A stretch of 64,000 nucleotides of DNA from Candidatus Latescibacterota bacterium (GTDB lineage Bacteria; Latescibacterota; UBA2968; UBA8231): contig CBDETY010000003.1 of NCBI GenBank assembly GCA_965243025.1, positions 3,104,001-3,168,000 of the forward strand, in the 5' to 3' direction. Positions 24,150-31,140 of the stretch are shown piece after piece (position 1 is the first letter of the stretch; the number at the start of each line of letters is the position of its first letter). The notes under the pieces are model-generated. The model did not search any database, had not been told where the DNA came from, and saw nothing but the letters and a program-made list of their open reading frames with translations. Made by a program: the position numbers and the translations under genes.

Positions 24150-25349
24150 TCAGGCGCCACATCCGTTTTCCTTGGCCTCCTGCCGCCTGCCCGCCAGGGG
24201 ATGCATGACCCCGGCGCCGGCAGGCCACACCCCCGGCTCGGCCTTCAGGCGGCGGCAGATGCGCTGACCGTGGGGGGACAGAGTCTCCCAGATTTCATGG
24301 GGCATCGTCTTGCGGAACTCCCTGAGCCCGCCGATCCACGCCGGGGCGTATTCGACGTTGGGCATGGCGCGGACTTCGCGGCTGAGGTTGGGGGTGCCGC
24401 CGTGCCAGGCCCGGTGGTCGCGGAACACGCCGGCCCCGGCAGGAGCCCCGACCAGCGTCGAGAGGCGCATCCACTCCGGTTCCTCTTCCGGAGGAGGCGG
24501 ATCGAAAGCGGACGACTGGGTCGCCGGAATATGCCTGACGGGACCGTTCTCCCAAGTCATGTCCGTCATCAGGAAGTTGATTATCACCAGCTGCGGAGTC
24601 AGCTCGATTACCCTGCGCCGGGTCTGTTCGTCGAGGCCGCCCGAGGCGCCGTCGCGGGACAGCTCGACGCCGAGCGACTCCGCCTGCCTGAGGCGGGAAG
24701 CCGGCATCTCGTGCGACTCCCTGCCGTCGGCGTGGAGGTGCTGGTACTCGATGGCTCCCGGAAGGCACAGGTCCCCTCCTGAGCCCACGCAGATATATCC
24801 CGGCGATCCGAAGATTTCGCTCAGTATGGGGGTCGTCGCCGGCAGGTCGACCATCGAGGCCCACACCGGATCGTGCAGCAGTTGCCGGGAAGCGGAAGAG
24901 GAGCCGTAGCTGTAGCGGTGGGGCAGGCGGCCGGTCTCGTTGACGTACTTGCGGCCCCCGCTGCCGGGGATATCGAGGATATGGCGGAGAACGCGGGCGC
25001 AGCCGGCGCGCCAGCGGCTCAGCGCCTCCGCGTCGAGGAGGTCGCCAACGACGACGAACCCGTCGCGCCGGAAGATGCGGGCGGCGCGTTCGACTTCGGA
25101 GGGCTCGCAGATCTCGAGACCGCGCATGCCGTTGTGCTGTCGAAGGTGGTCCCGCAGCGCCGCCACCTCCGGGTCGTCATGGATTCGGCGTGCGGGAGAG
25201 CGCGGGTCGGAATGTCCGGGGCGCCGCTCCTCCGGAGCCAGGAAGCGGCCCTCCTCGTCGACGAACTCGTTCGGAAGCGTCCGGCCGCACCAGCCCACCG
25301 GGCTGTCTCCGTGTACGGTCAGGGCGTCGAGGTCCGCAGTCCGCCTCAT
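24150..25349 (-). CDS. PhyH-family dioxygenase (long variant)
   Basis: FRRDGFVVV, QHLHAD, ENGPVRHIP and WHGGTPN...R motifs. Confidence 0.82.
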   Translation of the reverse strand: MRRTADLDALTVHGDSPVGWCGRTLPNEFVDEEGRFLAPEERRPGHSDPRSPARRIHDDPEVAALRDHLRQHNGMRGLEICEPSEVERAARIFRRDGFVVVGDLLDAEALSRWRAGCARVLRHILDIPGSGGRKYVNETGRLPHRYSYGSSSASRQLLHDPVWASMVDLPATTPILSEIFGSPGYICVGSGGDLCLPGAIEYQHLHADGRESHEMPASRLRQAESLGVELSRDGASGGLDEQTRRRVIELTPQLVIINFLMTDMTWENGPVRHIPATQSSAFDPPPPEEEPEWMRLSTLVGAPAGAGVFRDHRAWHGGTPNLSREVRAMPNVEYAPAWIGGLREFRKTMPHEIWETLSPHGQRICRRLKAEPGVWPAGAGVMHPLAGRRQEAKENGCGA

Positions 25350-25525: not shown

Positions 25526-26683
25526 CTACGCCCGGTCCAGCGTCCACCGGGTAGCCGCCACGTGAGTCACGCTGTCGCCGAGGGTCATGTAGTACACGGT
25601 GAACAGCGACCCGTCCGATAGCTCCACTGTCCGCGGATAACCCAGGTCGGCGGACGTCCCCTTCCCCGCCTCCCTCCCGCCGGTGGTGAGACCGTCGCCG
25701 CGCAGCACGATCCCGTCCGCCGGTTCCCATGTTTCGCAGCCGTCGCGGGACAGGCAGGCCCGCACCCCGTAGGGAGCCCTCCGGTACCCGTAGCTGCAGA
25801 GGACGTCGCCGCTGCTCAGCAGCAGCAGGTGCGGGGGATACCCCCACAATCCGGTATTTCTGATCTCGCTCCAGGTTCTGCCTCCGTCGTCCGAGTGCGT
25901 CTGGAACAGGTACTTCGCTTCATGGGGAATGCGTTTGCTGCCGCTTGCCGTGCGCACCATCGCCACGATGCGTCCGTTGGGCAGCGCCAGGAGGCTGCTC
26001 TCGTTGAACGGATGCTCGCCGCCGTCGTACGCCATCGTCACCATCTCCCAGGTGTCGCCGCCGTCTTCGGAGCGCAGCACCCAGGCCCGGAACGGATCCC
26101 CTGCCGCGAGGCTGCCGTACACCTGGTTCAGGATGGTATCGTCGGCGAGAACGCAGCCCTTCAGGTCGGTCCCGTTGCGGACCAGGGCGAAGAACGGCAG
26201 CTCTTCCCCGCTCCTGAGCAGGCGGTGTTCCCAGTCGCTATCTCCCGGCCGCTTCCGCGACATCCGCAGGCTGTGCTCCACGTGGATTCGTCCGGGGTAC
26301 TCCTCCACCGCGAACCCGCGCCGCGCGAACTCCTCCCTGCGCCCGGGCGGGTACGTGTTGACGGGCCTGGAGATCCTGACCTGGGTGCCGTCGCTCAGCA
26401 CCGCACTTCTCAGCGCCTCCGGGCATTCGCTGTAGCCGTCGTCCTTCCCCTCCTCGAACCAGCTGCCCCCGCCGTCCGGAGAGAACAGCTCCACGTGACC
26501 GGTCGCGCCCCCGGCCAGTCCGCCGGCATGGGAGTGCGCCGCCCCTTCGACGCCGCGCGCCAGCGGCGTGTGGGAGTTCCAGTTGAAACCGACCCAGAGC
26601 TCGTCGCCGTCTCCCTTTGCCACGGTCGGGAAGCTGGAATACCGGGCCTCGTTCCAATACAACACGGAATGGTTCATAGTCAT
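25526..26683 (-). CDS. Sialidase/BNR family protein
   Basis: Asp boxes SEDGGDTW, SDDGGRTW and SRDGCETW. GYP and DLGYP motifs. Confidence 0.8.
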   Translation of the reverse strand: MTMNHSVLYWNEARYSSFPTVAKGDGDELWVGFNWNSHTPLARGVEGAAHSHAGGLAGGATGHVELFSPDGGGSWFEEGKDDGYSECPEALRSAVLSDGTQVRISRPVNTYPPGRREEFARRGFAVEEYPGRIHVEHSLRMSRKRPGDSDWEHRLLRSGEELPFFALVRNGTDLKGCVLADDTILNQVYGSLAAGDPFRAWVLRSEDGGDTWEMVTMAYDGGEHPFNESSLLALPNGRIVAMVRTASGSKRIPHEAKYLFQTHSDDGGRTWSEIRNTGLWGYPPHLLLLSSGDVLCSYGYRRAPYGVRACLSRDGCETWEPADGIVLRGDGLTTGGREAGKGTSADLGYPRTVELSDGSLFTVYYMTLGDSVTHVAATRWTLDRA

Positions 26684-26780: not shown

Positions 26781-28361
26781 ATGCAGCCGACAGATATCGG
26801 ATCGAGCAAGCAGCTGTTCATCGACGACCGCTTCATCGCCACCAGCAACGGAGTGGAGCTGGCGATGAATCCACCCTACCAGGCCCCGGAGCCGGTGGTA
26901 ACCGTCGACGCCCCCTGGGAAGACCCGACCGACACGAGTTTCGGCATCTACAGCAGCGTGCTGGGGGAAGCCGACGGCCGCGTCCGGATGTGGTATCACG
27001 TGCGCAGGGCAAAGGAGGATTCCGAGCTCAGCCTCGACCAGGCCTACGTCGGCTATGCCGAATCGACGGACGGCATCCACTTCGACAAGCCGGAGCTGAA
27101 CCTCATCGAGGAGGGCGGCTCGACCGCCAACAACATCGTCATCCCGAGCAAGCTCGGCGGCAGCTCGGTCTGGATAGACCCCAATGCCCCGGCCGAAGAG
27201 CGCTACAAGAACCAGTGTAAGGTCTACAATCCGGAAGTGGCGATGCAGTTCCACATGCACGGCTCGCCGGACGGCATTCACTGGAAGTTCCTTCGCCGCC
27301 TGCAGCTCCCGCACCGGGGCGGCTGGGACACGCAGAGCGTCATTTTCTGGGATCCGGCCATCGGGCGCTACGTCCTCTACACCCGACGCTGGGTCGCCAG
27401 ACGCCACACCACCGCCCAGGGAAACGAGAACTACCGGACGGTCAGACGGCTCGAGTCCGACAATCTCGTCGACTGGGACAACCAGAGGATCGTCATGTGG
27501 CCGGACGAGGAAGACCTGGCGACCTACGATACCGGCGCCCCGCTGGACCCCGCGGCGCCGGAAAAACCGTACGGCAGGACGCCGATGGACTACTACGGCG
27601 CGGGCGTGTTCAAGTACCCCGACCCCGACGGCGTGTACGTCATGTTCGCCAGCGCCAACTGGTACTGGTTCAACCGCGAGCCGGTGGTGACCACGGTCCG
27701 CGACGACATGGACGTCCTGCGCACCGAGACGCAGCAGATCTACGGGCCCAGCCGCTTCGACGTGCGCCTGTCGGTGAGCCGCGACGGGGTGAACTTCCAG
27801 CGCTGCGGCGGACGCCGGCCCTTCCTGAGCCCGGGGCCGGAAGGCAGCTTCTCCTCGCGCATGGTCTGGGGCATGCCGCATCCGGTGCGGATGGGGGACG
27901 AACTCTGGATCTACTACAGCGGCACCAACCGCGACCACGACGGCCTCATCGACCCGGCGGGCGACCGCCTCCTTTCCGGCATCGGCCGCGCCGTTATTCG
28001 CCTGGACGGGTTCGTGTCGGCGGATGCCGGCTACGGCGGCGGCGAAATCGTCACGCCGGTTGTCCGCTTCGAGGGGAAGCGCCTGGAGCTCAACCTCGAC
28101 ACCGGGGGCGGCGGCGCCGTGCGCGTGGAGCTTCAGGACGCGGAGGGCCGGCCTCTCGGCGGCTACACCGAGGCGGATGCCTCCTGGATCTGCGGCAACT
28201 CGGTGCGCCTGCCGGTGCATTGGGGGAAGAGCGGGGATGTCGGCGCGTTGGCCGGCAAACCGGTCCGGATCCGCTTCGTCATGCGCGACTGCAAGCTGTA
28301 CGCCTTCCAGTTCGTCGACTCGCCTGGCGGTACGGCTATTCGAACTCCAGCGAAGCCTTGA
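26781..28361 (+). CDS. GH32/GH-J-like beta-propeller hydrolase (paralog 3)
   Basis: KQLFIDD, YAESTDGIHFDKP, RLDGFVS and KLYAFQF motifs. The last 26 nt overlap the convergent gene. Confidence 0.72.
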   Translation: MQPTDIGSSKQLFIDDRFIATSNGVELAMNPPYQAPEPVVTVDAPWEDPTDTSFGIYSSVLGEADGRVRMWYHVRRAKEDSELSLDQAYVGYAESTDGIHFDKPELNLIEEGGSTANNIVIPSKLGGSSVWIDPNAPAEERYKNQCKVYNPEVAMQFHMHGSPDGIHWKFLRRLQLPHRGGWDTQSVIFWDPAIGRYVLYTRRWVARRHTTAQGNENYRTVRRLESDNLVDWDNQRIVMWPDEEDLATYDTGAPLDPAAPEKPYGRTPMDYYGAGVFKYPDPDGVYVMFASANWYWFNREPVVTTVRDDMDVLRTETQQIYGPSRFDVRLSVSRDGVNFQRCGGRRPFLSPGPEGSFSSRMVWGMPHPVRMGDELWIYYSGTNRDHDGLIDPAGDRLLSGIGRAVIRLDGFVSADAGYGGGEIVTPVVRFEGKRLELNLDTGGGGAVRVELQDAEGRPLGGYTEADASWICGNSVRLPVHWGKSGDVGALAGKPVRIRFVMRDCKLYAFQFVDSPGGTAIRTPAKP

Positions 28362-29548
28362 TCCGCCCCCAGGATACCGACTCGACCGCGCTGTCTTCCA
28401 CCGGTCCGGCCGCGGTGGCCGGCAGCAGCAGCCCGTCCAGGTAGACATCCGCCCGGTAATGGGACAGTATGTCCAGTTCCGGGTCTTCAGTCTGGACTGC
28501 TTCAGGCGTCAAGGTGCCCCAGCTGTATTCGTCATCTTTTTCGACCACGAGGATCGCAAAGCCGATGACCTCTCCTGCGGTCAGATCGCTGACCACGACG
28601 TCTTCAGGCCGACTGTCGATTCCCTGCCAACCGTCGTATGGAGTGACGTACAGCTCGATTACCCTGATGATCGGGTTTCCCCAGACGACGTCACCGCCTG
28701 CGTCTCCGTAGGGAGGAAAGAACATCCAGGAATCATACCTGTTGGTTACCGTGTACCCGCCACTCAAGCCGGACCAGACATGGCCGTACAACGCAGTGCG
28801 GCCGTCGGCCGTACGGGCAATTGCCGCGTATTGCTGCGCGTTCCCCCAAAAATCCCCTGCTTCCCAGGATTCCAAACCACTCCCCCCGCCGCTGTGATCT
28901 CCGTCGATAGCCAGGACAAGTTCGGGGGGGCCCAAATAGTATTCAGTAGCTTCATCATATATAATGTGTGCGTCGTCGCTGGCCGTGAACGCGACATAGA
29001 GCCGGGCCGGCTCATCGTGCCAGGCCAGCCAGATGCGGAAGTCCAGGTCAGAAGGGTCGGGTATATGGCCGTACCATCTGAAATCCACCAGTGACATGGT
29101 GGGTTCGTCCACGAGATCGAACCACTCGGCCACCGAACCGTCGTCGAGCTGGATCTGTTCCAGCATCTCGTCGGTCAGCTCGGCGATCGGGAAGACTCGA
29201 TAGCCGCCGTGGGCGCCTGCCCGGGCAGACAGGCCGGCCGCCAGGGCCGACCCGACGACCAGGCCGAGGGCCATGCGCCACTGATTCCTCGTGCCGAAAA
29301 AGATCATCCGCCCTCCTCCTGGTTACCGCGTTACCGCCCGTCATGGGCGGGCTCGACAGGAGACCGCCTATCCCTGTCGGTTTATGGAAGGGGGTGGGCA
29401 CAGGTTACCCCTCGAGGGTTTGACGGGGGGGATGTCAGTACGGCTACTCCATCTCCAGGGAAGCCTTGATCCGCCCCCAGGAAACCGACTCGACCGCGCC
29501 GTTTTCCCCCGGTCCGGCCGGGTTGGCCGGCAGCAGCAGCCCATCGAG
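28330..29548. repeat. Direct repeat of about 110 nt (28330-28440 and 29438-29548) at the 3' ends of the two paralogs
   Basis: Shared gaagccttgatccgcccccagga.accgactcgaccgcg...ggccggcagcagcagccc. Identity extends 6 nt past the stop codon. Confidence 0.85.
28336..29307 (-). CDS. Secreted CBM9/DOMON-like beta-sandwich protein, paralog A, with C-terminal SWGRIKA motif
   Basis: Signal peptide ending ARAGA. LDDGSV.EW, WLAWH...LYVAF...DD, DGDHSGG and IGFAI motifs. RBS AGGAGG. Confidence 0.7.
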   Translation of the reverse strand: MIFFGTRNQWRMALGLVVGSALAAGLSARAGAHGGYRVFPIAELTDEMLEQIQLDDGSVAEWFDLVDEPTMSLVDFRWYGHIPDPSDLDFRIWLAWHDEPARLYVAFTASDDAHIIYDEATEYYLGPPELVLAIDGDHSGGGSGLESWEAGDFWGNAQQYAAIARTADGRTALYGHVWSGLSGGYTVTNRYDSWMFFPPYGDAGGDVVWGNPIIRVIELYVTPYDGWQGIDSRPEDVVVSDLTAGEVIGFAILVVEKDDEYSWGTLTPEAVQTEDPELDILSHYRADVYLDGLLLPATAAGPVEDSAVESVSWGRIKASLEFE

Positions 29549-30454
29549 AAAGTAATCGGAGGCAAAACGACTTATGTCCTCGAAAACTTCACGATCAAGA
29601 TCTACATGGGCTTCCGGTGCAAACGTCTTGACATATTCAATATTCCCCAAGTCCGCATCATACACGCCGATCGCGAACCCGATGGTCTGTCCTGCGCTCA
29701 GATCGCTTGCCACGGACCCCTCGGGACTGGTCAGGCCTTCCCTGTGGTCAAACGGCGTGACGTACAGCTCGATTGTCCAGATGACGGGCCTTTCTCCGGC
29801 TACGCTGCCGCCGGCCTCCGCGTAGGGGGGCAGGGTCATCCAGGAGAAGACCTTACTCCAGTGCCTGGATCTCCGATTATCCAGAATCGGTCCAACAGGA
29901 GTACGGGAAACGGCCTCATACTGCTGAGTCTCCCCACTGGCCTTCACGAGTCGTTCGGTTGTGAATACTCCTTCAAGCGCGGGACCGCCGCTGTGGTCTC
30001 CGTCGACTCCGAGAGCAATACCGTCGTTACCACCGTCCCAACCGGACAGCATATCGTCTTCTGAAGACTCACTCCAATTGTCCACGTCGTAGGTGTGGTC
30101 ATTCCAGTAATTGTCATCGGCGGCCGCGAAGGCTACATAGAGGCGAGCCGGCTCATCGTGCCAGGCCAGCCAGATGCGGAAGTCGATATCCGACGGATCG
30201 AGTGAGCCTTCCTGGCGTTGGAATGCGAAATCCAGCAGGGTCATGGCAGGTTCGCCGAGGAGATCGAACCACTCCTCCACCGAGCCGTCGTCGAGTTGAA
30301 TCTGTTCCAGCATCTCGTCGGTCAACTCGGGGACAGGGAAGACTCGACCGCCGACGTGGGCTTCTGCCCGGGCAGGCAGGCCGGCCCACAGGGCCGACCC
30401 GACGAGCAGGCCGAGGGCCAGGCTCCACTGATTCCGGATGCCGGAGATAAGCAT
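29444..30454 (-). CDS. Secreted CBM9/DOMON-like beta-sandwich protein, paralog B, with C-terminal SWGRIKA motif
   Basis: Tandem paralog of 28336-29307. ATG at 30454 after GAGGAG aligns with the paralog A start. Confidence 0.7.
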   Translation of the reverse strand: MLISGIRNQWSLALGLLVGSALWAGLPARAEAHVGGRVFPVPELTDEMLEQIQLDDGSVEEWFDLLGEPAMTLLDFAFQRQEGSLDPSDIDFRIWLAWHDEPARLYVAFAAADDNYWNDHTYDVDNWSESSEDDMLSGWDGGNDGIALGVDGDHSGGPALEGVFTTERLVKASGETQQYEAVSRTPVGPILDNRRSRHWSKVFSWMTLPPYAEAGGSVAGERPVIWTIELYVTPFDHREGLTSPEGSVASDLSAGQTIGFAIGVYDADLGNIEYVKTFAPEAHVDLDREVFEDISRFASDYFLDGLLLPANPAGPGENGAVESVSWGRIKASLEME

Positions 30455-30563
30455 CTGTTCTCCTCGGTTTGTTCTGTCCGAGATGGGCTCGGAAGGGGTT
30501 CCCCTTTCCCTGTCGGGTTCCTGAACGGTACGGGTGGCCATTCCTCCTCTTCAGGAATTATAA

Positions 30564-30642: not shown

Positions 30643-30894
30643 TCAGTCAGAGCACTCGCATTTCCAAGTCCCTGGGTCGACGAGGTCAACCTGGTACTCG
30701 TCGTGCCCAAGACGGGAGCAGTTGTAGGCGCACTTTCCGTCCGCCTCGCTGCTCGTGAAAGCGTACACCGTGTGGCAGTGGTGCCAACTGGTGCTCGAGG
30801 AGGCTTCCACCCACGACACGCCTCCGGTGGTCAGCAGGGCGCCCGCAAGAACGGCGAGGACGGCCTTCATGCTCTGCTTCAACGGATGTCTCAT
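30643..30894 (-). CDS. Small secreted Cys-rich peptide, CS-alpha-beta/defensin-like
   Basis: 83 aa. Strong RBS AAAGGAGG 6 nt before ATG. Signal peptide ending VEA. Mature part C-x14-CAYNC-x19-CEC. Confidence 0.7.
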   Translation of the reverse strand: MRHPLKQSMKAVLAVLAGALLTTGGVSWVEASSSTSWHHCHTVYAFTSSEADGKCAYNCSRLGHDEYQVDLVDPGTWKCECSD

Positions 30895-31100
30895 TGCAGC
30901 CTCCTTTGGATTTCGGGGTAGCGCCTGTTCGCCACCCCGGTTCACCCAAATACCATGCAATAGGCGTGCCCGTACATGACCCGCTGAGCCCATAAATGCG
31001 TTGGTTGTTACGTAACCTGTTGTTTTACTGTTCTTTATATAACACTTCTTTTTCTTTTTCGGCGTGATCAGCTCGTCCTTGGCGCCACCGGTTTTTCCGT

Positions 31101-31140
31101 TCCGTCGTATTTAATACGATTCCGTCGTATTTAATACGAT
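31101..31140. repeat. Exact 20-bp tandem duplication, each unit containing the palindrome TCGTATT-T-AATACGA
   Basis: tccgtcgtatttaatacgat occurs twice in tandem. Confidence 0.95.

Follow-up and report, generated by a model that had tools for sequence, protein, structure and literature searches.

Carbohydrate-binding modules of family 9 (CBM9), such as CBM9-2 of Thermotoga maritima Xyn10A (PDB 1i82) and a module from Caldicellulosiruptor (7nwn), are beta-sandwich domains. In 1i82 the reducing ends of carbohydrates are held between two Trp side chains and there are calcium sites as well, and in the CAZy sense a carbohydrate-binding module is contiguous with a carbohydrate-active catalytic domain. 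We analysed a pair of genes, A and B, in a stretch of 64,000 nucleotides (the window, C3:3104001-3168000, where C3 stands for contig CBDETY010000003.1) from the 6.8 Mb, 96% complete genome of a Candidatus Latescibacterota bacterium. Their products share with CBM9 a predicted beta-sandwich fold and an N-terminal framework motif of the type W..D..LYVAF..DD. Unlike CBM9, they belong to a family of stand-alone secreted proteins that are not attached to a glycoside hydrolase, that are about 70 residues longer through six variable insertions, and that have a conserved mature N-terminal His and a C-terminal tag, with some 87 copies in the genome. Their binding of sugars is putative.

Other known proteins come close in one respect or another. 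BACUNI_03838 of Bacteroides uniformis (PDB 4jpq), a putative carbohydrate-binding protein, is likewise a stand-alone secreted CBM9-like domain, but it has neither the tag nor a known expansion and its sequence identity to the family is 5-10%. The DOMON/EB_dh domains (ethylbenzene dehydrogenase gamma, 2ivf_C; Nxr gamma, 7b04_C; the cytochrome domain of cellobiose dehydrogenase) are of the same fold superfamily and are likewise periplasmic or secreted, although they are clearly weaker structural matches than CBM9 and occur as single-copy subunits of redox enzymes. A conserved scaffold carrying variable, ligand-facing segments in many variants is also the hallmark of antibodies and of the variable proteins of diversity-generating retroelements (DGRs), for example Mtd and TvpA with their C-type-lectin fold. 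In contrast to these systems, the diversity described here is inherited, in some 87 genes, from what appears to be ordinary duplication and near-neutral divergence with indels, without a DGR-type reverse transcriptase, cassette recombination or an elevated silent rate. A literature search, which included passages of PMC6081418 and PMC12993501, found nothing on the tag, this family or its expansion.

The reading that we favour, with moderate confidence, is a birth-and-death expansion of binding proteins that stand alone, have the CBM9 fold and combine a constrained scaffold with loops under almost no constraint. The family grew through duplications, both tandem and segmental, in which the B-A pair was also copied as a whole, and each copy diverged in place afterwards. 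A scaffold of about 100 columns, many of them invariant Asp, Trp or His, is held by strong purifying selection, and about 125 columns in six segments take substitutions at a roughly neutral rate together with indels. In a few neighbouring pairs, including A-B, the 5' and 3' ends appear to have been homogenised.

Size, distribution and predicted fold of the family

Gene A (28336-29307, minus strand) encodes a protein of 323 aa that is predicted, from the list of open reading frames (ORFs), the fold model, its family membership and its ortholog, to be a secreted stand-alone CBM9-fold protein. It consists of a signal peptide (residues 1-32), a mature N-terminus at His33, a domain at about residues 37-296, a linker and the C-terminal tag. 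Gene B (29444-30454, minus strand; 336 aa) is a paralog of A. Its ORF extends open to 30541; the start taken is the second ATG, at 30454, which aligns residue by residue with the start of A and with that of the ortholog in a sister genome. The two genes are co-oriented, with A beginning 136 nt downstream of B, and BLASTP aligned their products with 185/352 identities (53%), 45 gap columns and an E value of 2e-97. An earlier note on this DNA had described them as tandem secreted paralogs in which framework blocks, near-identical even at the DNA level, alternate with unalignable segments of variable length. This description is accurate: the framework strings that it quoted are all present (ELTDEMLEQIQLDDGSV, DFRIWLAWHDEPARLYVAF, DGDHSGG, IELYVTP, IGFAI and LDGLLLPA..SWGRIKASLE), both of its length-variable pairs were found, and A and B use the same codon at 114 of the 161 identical degenerate residues, compared with 58.8 expected from family codon usage.

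A six-frame search of the genome with protein A gave 101 matches, and a profile built from the family matches recovered 112 stop-to-stop ORFs, 87 of them full-length and 25 pieces, several of which result from frameshift splits. The full-length copies lie in 57 loci (38 single genes, 12 pairs, 3 triples and 4 quadruples), and the genes are co-oriented in 18 of the 19 multi-gene loci. By an arithmetic estimate the intact copies make up about 1.2% of the genome, all of it devoted to a single family without annotation, whose members standard tools call 'hypothetical'. There are therefore many more than two copies, and the repertoire idea of the earlier note gains support from the 87 full-length paralogs and from the diversity of their segments given below.

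The B-A unit (window 28336-30559) aligns over 2252 bp with C3:503814-505965 at 77.5% identity, and thus the pair was duplicated as one unit. Two other family genes, at C3:3346538-3347521 and C3:6065643-6066626, are identical in every codon, lie in opposite orientation 2.7 Mb apart and have small upstream ORFs that are likewise identical; either a large region was recently duplicated in inverted orientation, or this is a repeat in the assembly. An isolated fragment at C3:5487002-5487245, with 92% DNA identity to the final 243 nt of A plus the stop region, is the remnant of a close copy.

Most of the gene family's members are found within a single taxonomic family of a phylum that resembles Latescibacterota. 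In the genus of the source genome, two genomes have at least 71 family matches each, one other genus of the same taxonomic family has 39, and the remaining 15 genomes of that family have 1-11 each; no match was found in 12 genomes from two other families of the class. Across the phylum, 79 of 151 sampled genomes had a match at E<=1e-10, in a survey that scored 14 candidates per genome, so that it reads presence or absence and copy numbers are lower bounds. Broken down by taxonomic family, matches were found in 63/66 genomes (f1), 11/11 (f10), 2/2 (f6), 2/3 (f13), 0/31 (f2) and 0/22 (f4). Named relatives are metagenome-assembled genomes titled Candidatus Latescibacterota, Gemmatimonadota/Gemmatimonadaceae and, for one bin, Aminicenantes (33 loci), and several of the sequencing runs that contain the stretch are labelled sponge metagenome. 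A profile search of 1.84 billion cluster representatives returned 959 proteins at E<=1e-3, 692 at E<=1e-10 and 319 at E<=1e-30, almost all of them stand-alone and about 300 aa long. Among the best 150 nearly all had 120-400 aa, with one of 833 aa. In a separate search, none of the best 120 matches carried a Pfam domain or name.

Sequence searches did not place A and B in any family of Pfam (E<=1) or NCBIfam, the sole match being a chance one to PcsB (E 1.1); PDB sequences, searched with a profile, yielded nothing beyond chance matches (E 0.15 and 0.3), and neither the Pfam nor the PDB-sequence search matched them to the heme domains of the DOMON/EB_dh type. An AlphaFold2 (AF2) model from 112 sequences had a pLDDT of 79.1 and a pTM of 0.80, with the signal peptide and the last 20 residues disordered. 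The structure search (VIA) ranked CBM9 first (1i82_A, Z 16.8, root-mean-square deviation 2.9 A, 186/189 residues), followed by 4jpq_B (Z 15.3, deviation 3.4 over 201 residues). The heme-binding DOMON-type subunits 2ivf_C and 7b04_C reached Z 10.3 and 9.9 and everything else remained at or below 6.9, the cytochrome domain of cellobiose dehydrogenase being at 6-7. Foldseek agreed on CBM9 (E 8e-7), and so the CBM9/DOMON fold that the earlier note had guessed is confirmed at the level of the model. A tag-bearing protein of the same genome (L081) matches Pfam CBM9_1 with E 1.1e-6, and hhalign aligned it to the family profile with a probability of 92.6%, partly from the common tag. In the closest ESM-Atlas clusters, 13-97% of the members have CBM9_1.

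Following these analyses, the family is, by its modelled structure, a divergent stand-alone branch of the CBM9/DOMON-like superfamily with about 70 residues beyond the minimal module. Measured against the definitions of CBM9, the fold agrees (AF2 model versus 1i82_A), the gathering score of Pfam PF06452 (CBM9_1) is not reached, and no catalytic domain is contiguous, as 87/87 copies are stand-alone proteins of about 300-340 aa counted from the signal-peptide start. Trp and Asp residues are among those invariant in the family (W62, W93, W96, W194, D111, D112, D135 and D137). As far as the fold and the conserved residues show, the proteins would work like stand-alone CBM9-type binding modules.

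Origin of the variable segments

We aligned 76 strong full-length paralogs and classed the mature columns by entropy and gaps. This gave 103 framework columns (entropy <1.5 bits, gaps <=5%), 60 intermediate columns and 256 variable columns (entropy >=2.5 bits or gaps >20%), in 128 of which A has a residue. The variable runs in A are residues 77-83, 115-127, 142-157, 171-193, 226-234 and 259-286, with a variable linker at 300-305; in the AF2 model they comprise loops, one helix and two hairpins. The segments proposed in the earlier note are therefore real, but there are about six of them plus the linker and not about five. With a 60% identity threshold the four large segments fall into 51-63 types among 75 genes, so that nearly each gene has its own segments. 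By contrast, at least 90% of the 76 paralogs conserve R37, P40, D56, G57, W62, E68, P69, D75, F76, P85, D89, F90, R91, W93, W96, D111, D112, D135, D137, H138, G140, G141, Q158, Y160, W194, P199, E218, T222, D225, G249, D258, D291, G292, L294 and the tag residues.

Two claims about composition were checked on the same columns. The variable segments had been called AT-richer than the framework, and this is correct: the GC content at third codon positions (GC3) is 0.66 versus 0.77 in A, 0.59 versus 0.78 in B and 0.62 versus 0.74 across 75 paralogs. The lower GC3 would fit weak constraint under AT-biased mutation pressure. The richness in W, Y and D that had been noticed in several variable segments applies to single segments of A and B but does not extend to the family, in which variable columns contain 2.7% W, 4.1% Y and 8.3% D and framework columns 4.9%, 4.2% and 15.4%.

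No reverse transcriptase is encoded in the window, as the earlier note had observed, and the genome has a single RVT_1 match, far away at C3:1032098. It lies in locus L064 (C3:1030598-1034290), directly behind a group II intron RNA (Rfam RF02005, group-II-D1D4-6, 178.5 bits, L064:752-977), in an ORF (928-2586) with RVT_1 as its only domain. Since this one belongs to a group II intron, there is no DGR and no DGR-type reverse transcriptase in the 96%-complete genome. DGRs are also not known to generate length differences such as those among the variable segments. The mutation rate was then compared between column classes at 4-fold degenerate sites of identical residues in 20 independent sister-like pairs, where 121/647 framework sites and 100/512 variable sites differ (0.187 versus 0.195, Fisher p 0.76), while amino acids in the same pairs differ in 7.5% of framework and 37.3% of variable columns. 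The equal silent divergence in both classes argues against local hypermutation and also against preferential homogenisation of the framework. Raised synonymous divergence (dS) in variable columns by the NG86 method was treated as a multi-hit codon artefact, because the 4-fold sites at identical residues are equal. Sequencing runs were searched as Logan contigs, and at a likeness of 85% the conserved blocks collect sequences from several paralogs and strains; in the contigs of four runs the differences were not adenine-dominated (A>N 29/204 in run X5), which is weak evidence given this mixture of strains and paralogs.

Selection was assessed with a neutral test on 21 independent pairs, the expectation being derived from the silent distance of each pair. 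Observed amino-acid change amounted to 0.18 of the expectation in framework columns, 0.39 in intermediate columns and 0.89 in variable columns. One column of 287 lay above neutral at p<0.001, namely A159 (p 0.0004), flanked by the invariant Q158 and Y160, and its excess fails Bonferroni correction. The sister genome (G002) keeps the syntenic arrangement of a small leader gene followed by B' and A', with flanking genes at dS 0.16-0.19, a ratio of nonsynonymous to synonymous divergence (omega) of 0.23-0.27 and 91% amino-acid identity. Whole-gene omega of A and B is 0.6-0.74. The A-A' orthologs (A' at L067:3234-4206) are 91% identical, with a nonsynonymous divergence of 0 in the framework, omega 0.9 in the variable segments and a fast-evolving signal peptide (omega 1.28). 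The B-B' orthologs are only 67% identical; their framework has omega 0.26 with dS 0.22, in line with the flanks, and their variable segments have omega 0.99. A clear signal of selection on the segments, which the earlier note had proposed as a check, is not supported, with both the family-wide ratio and the ortholog omega close to the neutral value.

Recombination was considered at two scales. For the segments, four-gamete violations were found in 1/15 segment pairs, between the two shortest and least diverse segments, and the pairwise homoplasy index (PHI) test on 35 paralogs was not significant (175 and 119 of 1000 permutations <= observed), although saturation may limit its power. Together these results indicate that there is no cassette shuffling, contrary to the segmental recombination that had been suggested. 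For the genes as a whole, dS between A and B is far from uniform: 0.16 in the signal peptide, 0.36 in residues 33-66 and 0.27 in residues 286-323, compared with about 1.7 in residues 113-285. A two-breakpoint max-chi-square test on all columns of A and B was significant (0/500 permutations). In 36 adjacent pairs the same-codon fraction is higher at the ends than in the middle, with a median difference of 0.071 versus 0.031 in non-adjacent pairs, a weak trend (Mann-Whitney p 0.083) that is carried by 4-6 adjacent pairs, several of them descended from the same B-A cassette. These data weakly suggest gene conversion limited to the gene ends of A-B and a few other adjacent pairs; to that extent the earlier proposal of gene conversion survives, and elsewhere it does not.

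Duplication, a uniform silent rate, near-neutral loops and the lack of cassette shuffling together argue for birth-and-death evolution and not for a dedicated diversification mechanism. A 'framework plus hypervariable loops' architecture may accordingly come from plain duplication and near-neutral drift. Several points weigh against the favoured reading. The max-chi-square test is not significant on the framework alone (198/500) or on framework plus intermediate columns (115/500), and the homogenisation of the A-B ends reaches significance only with the signal peptide and intermediate columns included. The A-A' dS of 0.06-0.075 is below the 0.16-0.19 of the flanks (silent sites 12/204.5 versus 59.5/359); a recent allele exchange between lineages is possible. 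A mean omega near 1 cannot tell unconstrained loops from a mixture of positively and negatively selected sites, and merely unconstrained loops leave uncovered the reason for keeping so many intact copies.

An alternative along the lines of the earlier note is an adaptive, antibody-like repertoire, in which the variable segments would be a binding surface under diversifying selection, helped by gene conversion. Selection would come from diverse or changing targets, for example glycans of the host or of food, phages, or immune factors of the sponge. We regard this as rather improbable. In its favour, nearly all copies have unique segments, differences between A and its closest homologs are almost confined to the variable segments and the signal peptide, and both the whole-gene omega and the low identity of the B orthologs set the pair apart from its flanks. 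Observed change also exceeds 1.3 times the neutral expectation in 19/124 variable columns, yet the mean over the variable columns is below neutral and not above it, and A159, the lone outlier, does not withstand correction for multiple testing. Homogenised ends in some adjacent pairs would be expected if gene conversion helped, but the segments themselves share no cassettes and give no PHI signal, and the uniform silent rate and low GC3 of the variable columns fit weak constraint.

A second alternative centres on the scaffold and the mature N-terminus. Both A and B start with a hydrophobic signal peptide ending in AxA (29212-29307 in A, ending AGA before the His; 30359-30454 for the equivalent stretch in B; both minus strand). 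In the cleavage columns of the 76 paralogs, position -1 is Ala in 65/76 and position +1 is His in 65/76 and Gln in 9, followed by a conserved xGDR[VLI][YF]P. Signal peptidase is not known to need a fixed +1 residue, and therefore the N-terminal His is probably functional. The proteins might then be DOMON-like periplasmic or surface proteins that bind a metal or cofactor, for example through a copper site based on this His or through heme b as in ethylbenzene dehydrogenase gamma, with the loops free to drift at the neutral rate that we observed and the copies kept for dosage or regulatory partitioning. Such a site could draw on the invariant D111, D112, D135, D137, H138, Q158, Y160, W62, W93, W96, W194, E218 and D225. 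The heme-binding 2ivf_C and 7b04_C are indeed among the fold matches, but the sugar-binding CBM9 and 4jpq are the best ones by far, and no known metal- or heme-binding family was matched by sequence in Pfam, NCBIfam or PDB. A small His/Cys-rich protein is co-encoded with the pair and thiol-disulfide oxidoreductase genes adjoin three arrays, which would also suit this explanation; the nine members with Gln at +1 do not, and some 87 intact copies for dosage alone would be unusual. On balance we think it unlikely.

Targeted hypermutation by a DGR or another localised mutator, which the earlier note had listed, has nothing in its favour beyond the overall appearance of variable segments set in a conserved framework, and it can all but be dismissed on the group II intron origin of the single reverse transcriptase, the equal silent divergence, the length differences among segments and, as weak evidence, the contig differences that are not adenine-dominated.

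C-terminal tag and upstream module

The tag of A (SAVESVSWGRIKASL) is encoded at 28348-28392 on the minus strand and is followed by 3 residues and the stop; that of B (GAVESVSWGRIKASL) is encoded at 29456-29500 on the minus strand. The core W[GA]x[IVLM]K lies inside the final 30 residues of 86/87 full-length members. A strict form of the motif, [TS][AS][VI]-x1-6-[STG]W[GA]x[IVLM]K (TAVE..SWGxIK), was scanned over 24,398 ORFs and was found 101 times within 20 residues of the stop, in 83 family and 18 non-family ORFs, and once elsewhere. The tag Lys is mostly 4-6 residues from the C-terminus, with 3-6 residues after the motif. Of 20 scanned tag-bearing non-family ORFs, 9 have Pfam matches and 11 do not. 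The matches are to FGE-sulfatase (L074), Fasciclin (L077), Cache (two, one of them below the cut-off; e.g. L078), CBM9_1 (L081), PD40 (three; L086, L087 and L089) and Lipocalin_4 (L088).

Being short, strictly C-terminal and placed behind a variable linker on unrelated secreted domains, the tag looks like a sorting or anchoring signal, as judged from its sequence distribution. The C-terminal domains (CTDs) of the type IX secretion system (T9SS; CHU_C, FlgD_ig), PEP-CTERM, GlyGly-CTERM and LPXTG are likewise conserved, strictly C-terminal, preceded by a variable linker and found on unrelated secreted folds. Unlike those signals, the tag has only about 15 residues, without a transmembrane helix and without a domain of 80-100 aa; T9SS-type CTDs are present on other proteins of the same genome. 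The C-termini of A and B match no curated model in NCBIfam or Pfam, and a literature search with the tag motif strings returned no relevant paper. The tag resembles a protein-sorting signal without described machinery. In the AF2 model a short helix of low confidence covers WGRIKAS, and one may speculate that the tag is an amphipathic anchor.

Upstream of B, on the minus strand, the order is two 20-nt units, an A/T-rich stretch, a sigma-54-type element, a small leader gene, B and A. The -24/-12 element (GGGCACGCCTATTGCA, 30956-30971, minus strand) is identified by its sequence motif and has a conserved counterpart, AGGCATGCCATTTGCA, at the paralogous locus C3:3927853; the sigma-54 consensus is TGGCAC-N5-TTGCW. 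The genome has rpoN at C3:4185559-4186035. The sequence features of a sigma-54-dependent operon, that is a -24 GG/-12 GC element, rpoN and an upstream activator site, can all be recognised here, and activity is predicted. The upstream site consists of two exact tandem 20-nt units (31100-31139), each with the near-palindrome TCGTATT(A/T)AATACGA, about 130-170 bp upstream of the element, and is likely the binding site of an enhancer-binding protein. With up to one mismatch the palindrome has 9 sites in the genome, at 6 loci, and 9/9 have a family ORF no more than 1.5 kb away; with up to two mismatches this holds for 15/16 sites. The whole upstream module is kept at C3:3927853, where it has four palindromes.

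The leader gene (30643-30894, minus strand), between the promoter and B, encodes 83 aa with a signal peptide and a mature part of about 52 aa that is rich in Cys and His (WHHCHTVYAFT..GKC..C..GH..GPGTWxCEC). Homologs occur upstream of family genes at C3:3346110, C3:6067054, C3:3929225 (frameshifted) and C3:458400 (weak) and at two loci of the sister genome; Pfam gave no match for the leader protein. A complex prediction of mature B with the mature leader protein (score 0.09, mark 0.32) speaks neither for nor against binding. Contigs from an RNA library (run X19) lie on the two genes, among them one of 285 bp that shows 8 differences and another of 385 bp that shows 14, which is no proof of transcription.

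Two proteins of 1086 and 1089 aa, at C3:120591-123848 (L091:10792-14049) and C3:500240-503506 (L093:10441-13707), flank the two largest arrays of the A/B clade. Each has seven Reg_prop repeats and a sigma-54 AAA+ domain, along with weak matches to Y_Y_Y and HTH_8, and both are candidates for the regulators that act at the palindromes. Glycan-sensing hybrid two-component systems of Bacteroides have a Reg_prop sensor of this architecture. The palindromes, the sigma-54 promoter and these enhancer-binding proteins would define a testable regulon.

Put in terms of function, the favoured birth-and-death reading would have the proteins exported by the Sec pathway, cleaved to leave an N-terminal His (or Gln) and retained at the cell surface by the tag. 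They would bind ligands, most likely glycans, at a CBM9-like site that is conserved, while the variable segments would adjust the specificity, and the A/B clade would be transcribed from sigma-54 promoters through the palindromes and enhancer-binding proteins with a periplasmic Reg_prop sensor. On the other side of the balance, A and B miss Pfam CBM9_1 even at E<=1, stand-alone copies are unlike the classic enzyme-attached module, and the many invariant polar residues and the conserved His at the N-terminus may just as well belong to a site for a metal or cofactor. Surface tethering through the tag is purely conjectural. The -24/-12-like element was found upstream of only 8/87 genes, compared with 69/3000 (2.3%) random windows, and hence the sigma-54 regulon covers the A/B clade and not the entire family. 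The genes next to the arrays are also heterogeneous, with few glycan enzymes among 111 ORFs (sulfatase, GH32, GH127 and NPCBM).

Uncultured sponge symbionts are usually described through their eukaryote-like repeat proteins and carbohydrate-active enzymes. Perhaps, and we put this forward only tentatively, the family is a germline-encoded repertoire of about 100 surface binders in sponge symbionts, each with six variable segments of its own on a CBM9 scaffold, displayed by the tag, controlled by a dedicated sigma-54/Reg_prop regulon and accompanied by a Cys/His-rich partner. The segments would then recognise different structures of the host, of food or of phages, and selection on them would fluctuate, with a mean omega of about 1. 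The size of the expansion, the C-terminal tag and the dedicated sigma-54 module appear to be new elements. Some 87 proteins with the same scaffold and different loops are in any case a natural test series for the tuning of CBM9-type specificity, and a possible scaffold for engineered binders.

Genomic neighbours

The 111 neighbouring ORFs considered come from 17 arrays and were part of 133 ORFs of at least 230 aa chosen around 20 arrays. They are a mixed set. PD40 beta-propellers lie within four of the arrays or adjoin them, PAS histidine kinases, a LuxR regulator, transposases and T9SS-type CTD proteins occur as well, PhyH dioxygenases account for 10/111, and among the 111 there was no regularity like that of a polysaccharide utilization locus. 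Near A and B themselves, a PhyH (phytanoyl-CoA dioxygenase-like) gene lies at 24150-25349 (minus strand). A gene for a 526-aa protein (26781-28361, plus strand) adjoins A; it is 91% conserved in the sister genome with omega 0.23 and has no Pfam match at E<=0.01. Beside it, at 25526-26683, is a BNR/sialidase-like gene.

Of the four Peptidase_A24-like membrane protein genes in the genome, three are the immediate upstream neighbours of arrays from a distant subfamily (C3:5976747-5977088, C3:5982821-5983162 and C3:2826700-2827041; loci L107 and L097). Two of these three, in the downstream L107 cassette and in L097, have a ResA/TlpA-like thioredoxin gene alongside, and the Peptidase_A24-like gene with its thioredoxin gene forms a recurring cassette beside the distant-subfamily arrays.

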